DNA from: Escherichia phage vB_ESM-pEJ01
DNA length: 64,000 bases
Strand: one strand, 5' to 3'
Sequence record: OP114734.1
The notes below the pieces were generated by a model. The model was given only the letters and a program-made list of their open reading frames with translations. It was not told the origin of the DNA and did not search any database. Shown here piece after piece: positions 13,438 through 37,114 of this stretch; the first letter of the stretch is position 1, and every line of letters begins with the position of its first letter. A program made the position numbers and the translations under genes.

Positions 13438-13441
13438 TTAT

Positions 13442-13467
13442 AAGCCGTCCTTGTGGGCGGCTTTTTT
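13442..13467 (+). terminator. intrinsic terminator after the methyltransferase cassette
   Basis: hairpin AAGCCGTCC-TTGT-GGGCGGCTT followed by TTTTT. Confidence 0.65.
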
Positions 13468-13477
13468 GTATGTATTT

Positions 13478-13485
13478 TATAAATA
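13478..13485 (+). promoter_or_regulatory. T4-type late promoter TATAAATA upstream of gene 9
   Basis: exact TATAAATA 28 nt upstream of the gene 9 ATG. Confidence 0.55.
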
Positions 13486-13512
13486 ATACATCATAACATG
13501 AGGAATTAAACA

Positions 13513-34960: not shown

Positions 34961-35548
34961 CTAAATATCTAACCAAGACAAGTCAGATCCGCCCAAGATT
35001 TTTTCGACGGCGGATCTATTTTCTTGATGATATAAGTTAAAACATGGTATCCCATGTCTACGGGCAACATAAACAGCAATTCGAGTTCCTCCCGAAACGA
35101 TTCCATTAACTTCTTTCGCCCAGAATATCACACAATCTACAGGATCATCAAGTGTCTCACCTAAGACTTGAGCAACATTTCTAGAAAACAGATTTTGCAT
35201 GTATAACGGTATAGAACGAGGATTATCATAAACGTGTTCTAATTCATCCATCGCCAGATTCTTTTGTTCTAAGGTTTGCCATGCAATAACATCATGACCG
35301 TTATGCTTATGGTCATAAAACTTCCAAATTGGAATGAAAATTTTTCTATAATCTGGATCGTAATACTTCATGAAAGCATTGTCCATACCGTAAGCCCCTC
35401 CAGAATGCGCTACAACGCGATTTTCTGACAATACCCTCCCAATGGTACTAGCCATTATCAAAATGTCGTTAGGCGCTTTTCTAGAGCCTATCAAAGCACA
35501 TCTACGAAGTGGTTTTACTCCAAATAGATCTTGTAACTGGTCAAACAT
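34961..35548 (-). CDS. DprA/Smf-like (SLOG-type Rossmann) domain protein
   Basis: ALIGSRKAP...RVVAHSGGAYGMD resembles the DprA motif (GSR...SG.A.GID); second glycine-rich segment VSGGTRIAVYVARRHGIPCF; RBS GGAGGA. Confidence 0.55.
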   Translation of the reverse strand: MFDQLQDLFGVKPLRRCALIGSRKAPNDILIMASTIGRVLSENRVVAHSGGAYGMDNAFMKYYDPDYRKIFIPIWKFYDHKHNGHDVIAWQTLEQKNLAMDELEHVYDNPRSIPLYMQNLFSRNVAQVLGETLDDPVDCVIFWAKEVNGIVSGGTRIAVYVARRHGIPCFNLYHQENRSAVEKILGGSDLSWLDI

Positions 35549-35691
35549 AATATTTCCTCCATAGAAAGCAATATCATACTACAAGTTAATAACAAATGCA
35601 AGTATCCGCGTAGCGGAAGCGAGCACAGCGAGCAATAAAAACACTTCCAGTAATTGATTAATAAATGTTCGAAACAAATTTTTATTATTCT

Positions 35692-35727
35692 ATAAGATAA
35701 GTCTTCGTTTTGATCATAATTTAATCA
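35692..35727. repeat. imperfect direct repeat copy 1 in AT-rich intergenic region
   Basis: 26-nt core TCTTCGTTTTGATCATAATTTAATCA identical to 35851-35876. Confidence 0.5.
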
Positions 35728-35840
35728 TACATGTAAAAACTACACAAAAGGATATCGCTTCGCGAACCCCTACGGAGTATAACATTTGTGTTACAATATG
35801 TAGTGATTAATAATTAACCAAAGATACATTTTCTATGTTC

Positions 35841-35876
35841 TAAAGATCTTTCTTCGTTTTGATCATAATTTAATCA
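35841..35876. repeat. imperfect direct repeat copy 2
   Basis: same 26-nt core, 149 bp downstream of copy 1. Confidence 0.5.
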
Positions 35877-35927
35877 AACAGTATTAATATTGTGCACATG
35901 TAAACTAAAATTATGTTAATAACAGAT

Positions 35928-35958
35928 ACAAAAAAGCCGCCCAGAAGGACGGCTAATG
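35928..35958 (-). terminator. intrinsic terminator after the 145-aa gene
   Basis: on the - strand: hairpin AGCCGTCC/GGGCGGCT followed by UUUUUU. Confidence 0.55.
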
Positions 35959-35962
35959 TTAA

Positions 35963-36400
35963 TTATTTGTTGATAACGATCTGATTTCGGCGAATGGTAA
36001 CATTACTCTTAGAGATGATCAGATCATCCGGCACTACGTTAGTTTTGTATGGTTGGAATCGAACAAGCATCTGATTGCGTTTAGACCATTCCTTAATCTT
36101 GATTTCCATCTGGATATTGTTGCCTACGTGAGCAACCGCAATTTCACCTTTATTCTCATAGACCCACTTGCTGGTAACGTCTCCAGCAAAAGCCTTAATA
36201 ACTTGCAATGCTTCGTCGTATGCGGTAGAGCTGTGAACTTTCAGAAGGCCAGCCGTAGCAAGACGGGAGCAGGTGATCGCCGGAGATTGCCAAACATCAA
36301 CATTAATTTGCTCAATCAGAGTAACACCGCCCTGATCAACTGCTTTGAATGCTTCGAACATTGCCTTTTTCATTGCTACGTGGTTTTTACGGAATTTCAT
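35963..36400 (-). CDS. hypothetical protein (145 aa)
   Basis: ATG with RBS GAGGTG; no family recognised. Confidence 0.5.
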   Translation of the reverse strand: MKFRKNHVAMKKAMFEAFKAVDQGGVTLIEQINVDVWQSPAITCSRLATAGLLKVHSSTAYDEALQVIKAFAGDVTSKWVYENKGEIAVAHVGNNIQMEIKIKEWSKRNQMLVRFQPYKTNVVPDDLIISKSNVTIRRNQIVINK

Positions 36401-36446: not shown

Positions 36447-36722
36447 TCAGGACATTGCCCGTTTGAATGCGTCCATTATAACAGTGTTATTTGGCTTGTC
36501 AACACGTTTTTGAACTTTATTTTTAAATTTTTTGTTGATGTGGTGTTTACGATAAACAACCTTTTCACGATTGGCGTAAGACTCTCGTGCATCTTTTACC
36601 ATCAACCATGCCTTAGCCGCATCTTGTCCGCTGATCCCGCCAATCTTCTTAGCAATATCAACAAAATTAAGACCGTGGTCTTCGCGTAGCATGTAAACCA
36701 TTAACGCTGTTTTCTTGTCCAT
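36447..36722 (-). CDS. hypothetical basic protein (91 aa)
   Basis: lysine-rich C-terminus; abuts the upstream ORF. Confidence 0.45.
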   Translation of the reverse strand: MDKKTALMVYMLREDHGLNFVDIAKKIGGISGQDAAKAWLMVKDARESYANREKVVYRKHHINKKFKNKVQKRVDKPNNTVIMDAFKRAMS

Positions 36723-37046: not shown

Positions 37047-37074
37047 ATTATAGGCATCTAAATCGCTCTGTCAA
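37047..37074 (-). promoter_or_regulatory. sigma70-like promoter (TTGACA-N16-TATAAT) downstream of hoc
   Basis: - strand -35 at 37069-37074 and -10 at 37047-37052; directed at the small ORFs at 36.4-36.9 kb. Confidence 0.55.
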
Positions 37075-37086
37075 GCACAAAAACAA

Positions 37087-37114
37087 AAAAGCCACCCCGA
37101 AGGATGGCTGATAG
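37087..37114 (-). terminator. intrinsic terminator after hoc
   Basis: - strand hairpin with UUCG loop (AGCCAUCC-UUCG-GGGUGGCU) followed by UUUUUU. Confidence 0.65.

Follow-up and report, generated by a model that had tools for sequence, protein, structure and literature searches.

The 414-bp gap between two minus-strand genes at positions 35549-35962 of the window (the whole 64-kb stretch of phage DNA that was analysed) may control sigma-70 transcription as a conserved cis-regulatory DNA element to which the host DNA-bending protein Fis probably binds. We put the probability of this reading at roughly 0.4. The 26-nt direct repeat found in the gap is the core, and the best-kept part, of two ~149-bp tandem modules.

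The window was assigned to Krischvirus, the group of RB49/Phi1/JSE-like T4-type coliphages. The gap is flanked by a DprA-like gene (34961-35548, - strand) and a gene for a 145-aa protein (35963-36400, - strand); its limits, its place between two minus-strand genes and its AT-richness (30% GC) agree with the initial annotation. That annotation had also stated that no open reading frame (ORF) with a ribosome-binding site is present, and this holds. The sole ORF of at least 30 aa in the gap (35579-35677) has a TTG start without a Shine-Dalgarno sequence and is disrupted by a 1-nt indel in 13/17 close relatives. The 32-aa ORF annotated in some records was rejected as coding, because an indel breaks it in most relatives. 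An all-frame peptide comparison between lineages found no conserved gap ORF in the distant relatives; it gave only short matches in multiple frames, as expected with conservation at the DNA level. No tRNA or tmRNA was found in the gap.

Exact copies of the repeat, TCTTCGTTTTGATCATAATTTAATCA, were confirmed at 35702-35727 and 35851-35876. There was no other copy in the window even when up to three mismatches were allowed, and none is expected from shuffled sequences. The flanks had been described as similar, and the likeness indeed reaches 38 nt at 89% and, over a longer span, ~78 nt at 78% (35655-35731 versus 35804-35880), which gives a module spacing of 149 bp. Tandem Repeats Finder called no 149-bp array in the gap, since the units diverge too far in their 5' halves to be aligned. 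Read on the minus strand, each module opens with a palindromic site of 15 bp, the 3' half of which is where a -35 hexamer would be expected; a TATA (-10-like) box comes 17 nt later. Beyond an AT-rich stretch there is a second site, which lies 56 nt from the first in the window and 53-65 bp from it in modules overall; GC-rich triloop mini-hairpins follow. A third cassette, made up of hairpin H3 and the promoter TTGCAT-17-TATGAT, directly precedes the DprA-like gene. The units of one genome are always each other's closest relatives, and the exact identity of the 26 nt is attributed to gene conversion, which homogenises the modules, together with constraint on the site.

A pair of regulator binding sites had been among the functions proposed for the repeat. 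The regulator-site option was supported, but the sites number four and not two: each repeat copy holds a 15-bp palindromic site (GATTAAATTATGATC, - strand) that fits the Fis high-affinity consensus, and each of these is paired with a second site at a distance of 56 bp. For the high-affinity sequence of E. coli Fis, PMC3302801 cites GNNYAWWWWWTRNNC and PMC6907758 gives GNTYAAAWTTTRANC. In the 64-kb window GNNYAWWWWWTRNNC has 7 matches, 4 of them in the gap (35656, 35712, 35805 and 35861), and in a 162-kb Krischvirus genome 11 matches, 4 of them within the gap. Simulated genomes never had more than 2 matches per 500 bp, and 0.06 matches are expected from the gap's own composition. The 17-bp palindromes were found nowhere else in the window.

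A site logo was built from 28 positionally homologous sites in 6 lineages. G(-7), Y(-4) and A(-3) in the left half and C(+7) in the right half were present in 28/28 sites, and T(+3) and R(+4) in 27/28; the centre was all A/T and the remaining positions were variable. The logo thus has the G(-7), C(+7), Y/R(+/-4), A/T(+/-3) and AT-rich centre of the Fis consensus, which the four gap sites match exactly, and 4/5 substitutions inside the sites fell on N or W positions. Host Fis probably binds the four gap sites; the consensus that points to it is degenerate, and a different dimeric protein could recognise this palindrome. The boxes of IHF (WATCAANNNNTTR), Fur (TGATAATnATTATCA), CRP, ArgR and PurR, compared by eye, misfit in length or in conserved positions. 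Dam GATC sites were likewise rejected as the shared feature, as they misfit and GATC is unconserved in the relatives.

A terminator scan located the intrinsic terminator of the upstream 145-aa gene at 35935-35954 (- strand, AGCCGTCC-TTCT-GGGCGGCT, then a T-run). Its counterpart in RB49 is the published terminator at 97821-97838, which is the sole prediction in the gap in the RB49 genome papers, and similar copies of the terminator segment occur in the window at 13440-13487 and 37069-37112. A near-consensus Fis-type site follows at 35881-35895 (- strand, GCACAATATTAATAC; one mismatch, A for T at +3), 20 bp before site L-A; its homologues in lineages L005, L050 and L052 have the full consensus and lie 18-20 bp upstream of the left site. 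Repeat copy 1 (35851-35876), which reads TGATTAAATTATGATCAAAACGAAGA on the minus strand, contains the Fis-type site L-A (35861-35875), and the last six bases of this site (ATGATC) occupy the position expected for a -35 hexamer. Unit alignment and promoter scoring placed a degenerate -10-like box of module A, TAGAAC, at 35837-35842 (- strand), where the relatives have TATAAT, 17 nt after the site. The partner site R-A (35805-35819, - strand GGTTAATTATTAATC) is 56 bp from L-A. An extended -10-like element, TGTTATACT (35776-35784, - strand), was recognised from the sequence and the unit alignment; it abuts hairpin H1, and L005 has TGTTAAAAT and L050 a similar element at the same place.

In module B, repeat copy 2 (35702-35727) contains site L-B (35712-35726), a -10-like box, TATAGAAT, lies 17 nt after it (35687-35694, - strand), and R-B (35656-35670, - strand GAACATTTATTAATC) is 56 bp from L-B. 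The site spacings in the window are 20, 56, 93 and 56 bp, of which 56 and 93 bp are non-integral helical turns. Beyond module B there is a conserved GCTCGC-TGT-GCTCGC element (35619-35633, - strand), with 0 polymorphic sites among 9 Krischvirus genomes. It is a direct repeat in the window; L050 and L054 have an inverted-repeat (hairpin) counterpart. A position-weight scan gave a moderate score to a proximal sigma-70-like promoter of the DprA-like gene, TTGCAT-17 nt-TATGAT (35573-35601, - strand), with a predicted start near 35566; its -35 hexamer is TTGTAT in most relatives. The Shine-Dalgarno sequence of this gene, GGAGG (35556-35560, - strand; ATG at 35548), is annotated as the ribosome-binding site in phage Makalu_002.

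Conservation and covariation had been suggested as a check on the gap, and both gave positive results, since the modules are kept in relatives and compensatory changes are seen in the hairpins. The only conserved structures in the gap are three mini-hairpins of 4-5 bp, all on the minus strand. H1 (CTCC-GTA-GGGG, 35767-35777), with compensatory changes across 6 lineages, is CTCC-GTA-GGAG in 16/17 Krischvirus genomes of the variant table and C(GNA)G in most lineages. One nucleotide separates H1 from H2 (TCGC-GAA-GCGA, 35755-35765), beyond which there is a T-rich tract. H2 contains GCGAAGC, which it has in 4/6 lineages, with GCGTAGC in a fifth. H3 (TCCGC-TAC-GCGGA, 35605-35617), identified by compensatory changes and folding, ends 3 nt before the proximal -35 hexamer. 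Mini-hairpins with GNA triloops of the d(GCGAAGC) type, studied by Hirao and co-workers, are said to be extraordinarily stable. H2 and H1 resemble this type; H3 differs from it in that its GNA-type loop is on the opposite strand in some lineages. The window's units fold no better than shuffles (z-scores -0.4 to -1.4), whereas the modules of L052 and L054 are strong AT-rich dyads (z-scores -3 to -6). A whole-module hairpin or cruciform was rejected as a conserved feature, since it is significant in L052 and L054 but in neither L005 nor the window.

At this position 2-3 modules are retained in six more diverged relatives. The modules are syntenic in L005, L050, L051, L052 and L054, in which the neighbouring protein is 86-50% identical, and L072 (92% identical) also keeps them. 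Copy number is variable, with 3 modules in L050. In the diverged relatives the sequences differ and the Fis-critical positions are invariant. Within Krischvirus the modules are under purifying selection: 5/167 sites are polymorphic, compared with 56/340 at codon position 3 (p = 3.7e-6). The modules change at about the rate of codon positions 1 and 2 and ~5x slower than position 3 or synonymous sites, and the linkers beside them evolve fast (15/39 polymorphic sites).

An exact-pattern scan of viral contigs with TTCGCGAAGCGATAT returned mostly chance matches and no new lineage, and a metagenome scan returned close relatives only. No such gap was present beside the distant DprA-like homologues in Bragavirus and Karamvirus. 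A homologue of the module was found in E. coli prophages, at the edge of a 1.3-kb gene-free region and accompanied by two C(GAA)G hairpins, which also resemble the d(GCGAAGC) type. The gene-free region has 7-10 iterons; these differ between two related prophages, as does the N-terminal half of the protein encoded downstream. The prophage module stands beside iterons and not before a DprA-like gene, which indicates that the module is not specific to that gene. An Rfam search of the prophage region at permissive thresholds gave nothing credible, and the proteins flanking the iteron region had no PHROG, Pfam or NCBIfam assignment, save a small terminase further off.

The 17-nt spacing from site to TATA box is kept in 5/6 lineages, and relatives have strong in-module promoters (e.g. 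TTGAAC-17-TATAAT in L054). In L005 the promoter is elsewhere in the module, as TTGACA-17-TGTAAT overlapping the right site. An equivalent of the proximal promoter occurs in most relatives; it is among the top scorers in L050-L052, ranks lower in L005 and is missing in L054. The in-module -10 boxes of the window lineage are poor and the modules are nevertheless almost invariant, which suggests that promoter strength is not the conserved property. The published promoter predictions for RB49 have no early promoter inside the gap.

Measured from the predicted starts, the module promoters have Fis-type sites at ~-37 and +20, and for the proximal promoter the sites are at about -97 to -302. The two sites of each module promoter would be occupied by a dimer that bends DNA, with E. 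coli Fis the likeliest candidate, and these same sites would stand upstream of the proximal promoter. Through the bound protein, the growth state of the host would gate sigma-70 (early) transcription across the gap and into the DprA-like gene, and the mini-hairpins might serve as attenuators. Fis as the protein, the direction of regulation and transcription as the output are what we infer here from the sequence.

Among known systems, the promoter-early stem-loop (PeSL) cassettes of RB49 and phi1 come from the same phage group as the gap (Arbiol et al. 2010, PMC2839356; Comeau et al. 2014, PMC4122927). Like the gap, they are intergenic, with an AT-rich tract and a sigma-70-type promoter, which in the gap is a predicted one, and their GC-rich stem-loop likewise overlaps the promoter or lies next to it. 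The gap can be divided into three PeSL-like cassettes (terminator and module A; H1/H2 and module B; H3 and the proximal promoter), in each of which the stem-loop precedes a promoter-like element, and the hairpins covary. The dispersed copies of the terminator segment and the portability of the module between genomes are also PeSL-like. However, PeSLs are ~50 dispersed, near-consensus strong promoters, each before an ORF, whereas two of the three cassettes in the gap have no ORF and only the third has a Shine-Dalgarno sequence and start codon downstream. The in-module promoters of the window are weak, with strong boxes in relatives, and the modules and the 26-mer are unique in the genome and form no dispersed family; only the terminator segment recurs. 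The defining feature of the gap, its pairs of Fis-type palindromes, is unmentioned in the PeSL papers, as are tandem modules.

The Fis arrays of E. coli (the upstream activating regions of rrnB P1 and tyrT, and the autoregulated fis promoter) likewise have several 15-bp GNNYAWWWWWTRNNC sites, some ~20 bp apart, in very AT-rich DNA adjoining sigma-70 promoters. The fis promoter has sites near -42 and +26, and the gap sites, predicted to lie near -37 and +20 and so to bracket the promoter core, recall this arrangement. Unlike these arrays, the gap has no site at the classical activating position -71, its sites are putative, and whole modules are tandemly duplicated in the genome of a virulent phage.

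The main alternative, though a somewhat unlikely one, is that the gap is instead a replication origin of the T4 oriF/oriG kind, at which host polymerase transcribes from a promoter into AT-rich DNA that unwinds easily. The annealed transcript could then form an R-loop that primes leading-strand synthesis, with the Fis-type sites bending or organising the DNA and the very stable mini-hairpins on the displaced strand. T4 origins consist of a promoter and a downstream AT-rich unwinding element, and oriE has an early promoter and repeated elements (PMC3016281). No other 400 bp of a 162-kb Krischvirus genome are as AT-rich as the gap, which has promoter-like geometry and is situated where late gene 24 (+ strand) meets minus-strand genes, ~5.5 kb from uvsY; T4 oriF (uvsY), oriG (gene 34) and oriE combine a promoter with an AT-rich region and are likewise near a strand switch beside late genes (PMC3016281). 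Cumulative GC skew was uninformative on this point, as it merely tracks the direction of transcription. The T4 origins have no sequence similarity to the gap, and oriF and oriG, unlike the gap, use MotA-dependent middle promoters.

The genome has no second cluster of such sites, as against ~50 ordinary promoter cassettes each in RB49 and phi1, and the conservation of the modules despite weak -10 boxes in Krischvirus would also suit an origin. The repeats of oriE, however, are 12-nt direct iterons, and those of the gap are 15-bp palindromes. Evenly spaced direct repeats and an adjacent initiator gene, typical of iteron-type origins (T4 oriE, plasmids), are both missing: the window has no iterons and no initiator gene adjoins the gap. 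True iterons occur only in the prophage homologues, where the module and its two C(GAA)G hairpins adjoin the iteron-bearing region, but this region could instead be for packaging or regulation. The strong dyads of L052 and L054 would likewise fit an origin, but the window shows only weak dyad symmetry over whole modules and L005 shows none. A wider form of this reading, also somewhat unlikely, is that the tandem modules are a Krischvirus origin with a Fis-organised sigma-70 promoter and R-loop priming, the portable module of Fis-type sites, a -10 box and two C(GNA)G mini-hairpins being an origin-activating promoter beside the prophage iterons. If true, the Krischvirus origin would be a counterpart of oriF/oriG in T4-type phages without MotA.

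The palindromes could also be operators of a phage-encoded dimeric DNA-binding protein, such as gp24.3/DUF2774 (36447-36722), and form a phage-autonomous switch, but we regard this as improbable. The order of DUF2774 gene, 142-151-aa gene, gap and DprA-like gene is constant in all gap-bearing relatives; DUF2774/gp24.3 is, however, present in phages without the gap (e.g. CC31), and the module-bearing E. coli prophages have no DUF2774 gene nearby. The structure predicted for DUF2774 is all-helical and includes a short segment, residues 20-45, that resembles a helix-turn-helix, but the protein has no Pfam HTH match, PDB sequence relative or solved relative, and the single-sequence AlphaFold model of gp24.3 is of low confidence (pLDDT 63). 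These palindromes are absent elsewhere in the window and genome, as expected of a dedicated operator, but their conserved positions are the Fis-critical ones.

A small RNA locus, which the initial annotation had offered as another option, was unsupported, and it is very unlikely that the gap is the source of a small regulatory RNA, or of two, or of a structured leader, with the repeats as duplicated RNA genes. The compensatory changes in the three mini-hairpins are in its favour, but only these 4-5-bp structures are conserved, the window's units fold no better than shuffles, and conservation follows the protein-site logo and not a base-pairing pattern. The extended -10-like element ahead of H1, H2 and the T-rich tract might start an RNA, but the transcript from this element to the T-tract would be only ~30-40 nt, and the gap has no unit of plausible length that runs from a promoter to a terminator. 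Each copy of the 26-nt repeat precedes or spans its own module's -35 position and would thus be mostly untranscribed from that module. No Rfam match was obtained in the gap even at E = 0.1, and none in the gaps of relatives. Least probable of all is that the gap has no function and was left behind by recombination between PeSLs or by the deletion of a gene, with the repeat a neutral duplication: the PeSL model predicts recombination between such cassettes (PMC2839356), module copy number varies and gene conversion does homogenise the units of one genome, but the recombination scar earlier proposed is contradicted by the slow evolution of the modules beside fast linkers, by their retention in lineages with only 50-86% neighbour-protein identity and by the expectation that tandem repeats in a recombination-proficient T4-type phage should vanish quickly unless selected.

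No description of this element was found in the literature, nor was a paper on Fis sites in the early regions of T4-type phages, or a Krischvirus transcriptome or origin map. RB49-type DNA has ordinary cytosine and is thus readable by host DNA-binding proteins. If the sites bind Fis, a virulent T4-type phage would be reading the growth-phase signal of its host directly, via a nucleoid protein. Should the gap prove to be an origin, the MotA-less pseudo-T-even phages, several of them in phage-therapy use, would have their first candidate. Whichever reading holds, the module common to Krischvirus and E. coli prophages shows that virulent and temperate phages exchange small non-coding control modules.

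The sequence is that of a Krischvirus, an RB49/Phi1/JSE-like "pseudo-T-even" coliphage, and the 1.6-kb stretch around the gap (35549-35962, between two minus-strand genes) is 95-99.8% identical to 58 phage records, with phage kvi as the best match. Upstream of the gap lies the gene of a 145-aa protein with no assigned function (35963-36400, minus strand; RB49p165, phrog_15652). Downstream is the gene of a DprA-like/SLOG protein (34961-35548, minus strand; RB49p164, phrog_768), convergent with the plus-strand gene 24 (capsid vertex). Both gp24.3/DUF2774 (36447-36722, minus strand) and hoc are farther upstream, and gp24.3/DUF2774 keeps its position two genes from the gap in every gap-bearing relative. 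Residues 20-45 of gp24.3/DUF2774 (LNFVDIAKKIGGISGQDAAKAW) have the look of a helix-turn-helix; a single-sequence AlphaFold model of the protein is all-helical and of low confidence (pLDDT 63). Across many genera, 980 phage records encode a homologue of the DprA-like protein; one of these records names it a YspA SLOG family protein, possibly a hint of a role in nucleotide signalling or counter-defence and not in recombination.

The 26-nt direct repeat described in the initial annotation was recovered as exactly two copies (35702-35727 and 35851-35876), where chance predicts none, and the window holds no third copy even at three mismatches. Similarity continues around the repeat, at 89% over 38 nt and at 78% over about 78 nt (35655-35731 versus 35804-35880), with a period of 149 bp, defining two tandem modules, A and B. 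The absence of a credible ORF also held: the sole candidate (32 aa) starts with TTG, lacks a Shine-Dalgarno sequence and is disrupted by a 1-nt indel in 13 of 17 close relatives. No peptide from the gap is conserved across distant relatives, and neither a tRNA nor an Rfam family was found in it.

No other 400-bp window of the genome is as AT-rich as the gap (28.7% GC versus a mean of 40.6%). Along its minus strand, the intrinsic terminator of the upstream gene (35954-35935) and a variable linker come first. Module A follows, with a near-site (35895-35881), a left site inside the repeat (L-A, 35875-35861), the box TAGAAC and a right site (R-A, 35819-35805). Next are TGTTATACT (35784-35776) and two mini-hairpins, H1 (CTCC-GTA-GGGG, 35777-35767) and H2 (TCGC-GAA-GCGA, 35765-35755, with a T-rich tract after it). 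Module B comprises a left site inside the second repeat copy (L-B, 35726-35712), the box TATAGAAT and a right site (R-B, 35670-35656), and is followed by a GCTCGC-TGT-GCTCGC element, the hairpin H3 (TCCGC-TAC-GCGGA, 35617-35605), a proximal promoter (TTGCAT-17-TATGAT, 35601-35573) and the GGAGG Shine-Dalgarno sequence and ATG of the DprA-like gene. Copies 80-83% similar to the terminator segment (AT-rich lead, GC hairpin and T-run; 35910-35957) occur at 13440-13487 (minus) and 37069-37112 (plus); both are intergenic and behave as the dispersed repeats of the PeSL (promoter-early stem-loop) type described for RB49/phi1.

The modules were also found at the same syntenic place in six more diverged lineages, represented by an IMG/VR contig (L005, DprA-like protein 86% identical), L072 (92%), and the metagenomic contigs L050, L051, L052/L053 and L054 (69, 59, 56 and 50%). 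In all six the same modular architecture occurs in two or three tandem copies, at 40-65% sequence identity. Bragavirus Pm5461 and Karamvirus CC31, T4-type phages that are more distant, have the DprA-like gene in the same neighbourhood without the gap, which restricts the element to the Krischvirus-like clade. Units of one genome are always mutually closest (0.66-0.88 versus at most 0.65 between most genomes), so the modules evolve in concert, which accounts for the exact 26-nt identity; the two copies in L072 differ at four positions. About 170 extra bases separate the last module of L005 from its DprA-like gene (2230-2440). They include a long imperfect hairpin (GGTGATACCCTAAAA...TTTTAGAGGGTATTGTGA, inner CGCT-TCTGAG-AGCG), have no Rfam match, and may represent either an insertion or a structured leader. 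In L052, positions 2527-2633 matched the Rfam sRNA STnc100 weakly and below threshold (32.7 bits versus a gathering score of 47, E = 8e-4); the matched stretch takes in the upstream gene's end and its terminator, and the terminator probably drives the match.

Alignment of the units revealed two conserved features, a pair of palindromic 15-mers and, in five of six lineages, a TATA box exactly 17 nt past the left one. The 15-mers match the published high-affinity Fis sequence GNNYAWWWWWTRNNC (PMC3302801), and the minus strand of the repeat (GATTAAATTATGATC) agrees with GNTYAAAWTTTRANC (PMC6907758) at 12 of its 13 specified positions. In a logo of 28 positionally homologous sites, G -7, Y -4, A -3, T +3, R +4 and C +7 are invariant or nearly so, the centre is all A/T, and -6, -5, +5 and +6 vary; the invariant positions coincide exactly with those known to matter for Fis. 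A degenerate Fis pattern matched seven times in the 64-kb window and 11 times in a complete 162-kb Krischvirus genome, with four matches in the gap in each case and only singletons elsewhere in the genome. Simulated genomes never gave more than two matches per 500 bp, and at the gap's own composition 0.06 are expected versus 4-6 observed in four lineages. Spacing is likewise conserved (upstream to left site 18-20 bp, left to right 53-65 bp).

Among nine Krischvirus genomes, module A is 4.4% polymorphic, module B 1.3%, and the GCTCGC element and H3 0%, compared with 38% for the linker after the terminator; in the two flanking genes, third codon positions are 14% and 20% polymorphic, and first and second positions 2-3% (modules versus position 3, Fisher p = 3.7e-6). 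Four of five substitutions inside the four sites (17 genomes) fall on N or W positions. The hairpins are short, and in the window they fold with unremarkable energy. Across lineages their outer pairs vary in a compensatory manner, and inner pairs and triloops are conserved; H2 includes GCGAAGC in four lineages, with GCGTAGC as the variant of a fifth. Covariation supported the pairing (paired cells 95.8% and 100%, versus 78% and 81% shuffled and 17-54% with slid partners). The window has G at 35768 where the other genomes of the 17 have A; H1 thereby has a T-G wobble in place of a T-A pair and retains its stem.

A sigma-70 promoter of perfect consensus with a TG extension (TTGACA-16-TATAAT, 36475-36502, minus strand) precedes the 145-aa gene and is the counterpart of the published RB49 early promoter Pe:98401. 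The published RB49 predictions list that promoter, and for this gap a terminator and no promoter inside. In the relatives, good sigma-70 promoters are predicted inside the modules, with the final six left-site bases in the role of the -35 hexamer: TTGAAC-17-TATAAT in L054 and ATGATC-17-TATAAT in L052 and L054. L005 instead has TTGACA-17-TGTAAT, its -10 taken from the right site. A strong antisense promoter built on the left site is predicted in several relatives. In the window lineage the in-module boxes (TAGAAC, TATAGAAT) are degenerate and only the proximal promoter scores reasonably; its equivalent is clear in L050-L052, weaker in L005 and missing in the scan of L054.

Of 5426 complete E. 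coli genomes, 53 have a single chromosomal copy of a 76-bp homologue of module A (82% identical). It lies in a prophage, at the margin of a 1.3-kb region devoid of genes (L073 3926-5192, which is E. coli H2 chromosome NZ_CP028733.1 2553383-2554649; L075 1296-2674). Past it are two adjacent C(GAA)G mini-hairpins, an order that matches module A, H1 and H2 of the gap, then more mini-hairpins, a GCGAAGC/GCTCGC-like element, two further consensus Fis-type sites and 7-10 iterons; at least five of the region's mini-hairpins are perfect GC-rich triloops. The iterons read (A)CCTACAC(T) in one prophage versus TTCAGGGGCAA in a related one, and the downstream proteins (333 and 313 aa) have only their C-terminal halves in common. 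The remainder had no matches to phages in the collection. The region looks like an uncharacterised origin or packaging-control region with swapped specificity.

The element is non-coding, selected, unique in the genome and organised around predicted protein-binding palindromes, and our preferred explanation is a cis-regulatory region. Its main rival is a T4-style origin, which combines a promoter with an unwinding element rich in AT (PMC3016281). Five points favour an origin: extreme AT content, the unique locus, the strand-switch position beside late genes, modules conserved despite weak -10 boxes, and the prophage homologue's iteron context. The logic and location of the gap recall T4 oriF, oriG and oriE, whereas its sequence does not. 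A dedicated phage-encoded regulator reading the palindromes is less probable and found no positive support, and the small-RNA and neutral-scar readings are each contradicted by several results.

Among described systems, the PeSL promoter-terminator cassettes of RB49/phi1 come closest to the gap, which has the same ingredients and portability. It departs from them in not being repeated at dispersed places and in not having an ORF after every cassette, and it adds Fis-type palindromes whose logo resembles, at the sequence level, the Fis-site arrays of E. coli promoters. The sites, with their geometry and conservation, come directly from the data; from these we infer the binding protein, the sign of regulation and the output: a DNA-bending dimer, probably host Fis, would occupy sites bracketing the weak sigma-70 promoter cores and lying upstream of the proximal promoter, and the mini-hairpins may act as attenuators, as described for PeSL stem-loops (PMC2839356). 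The output would be early transcription into the DprA-like gene that depends on growth state.
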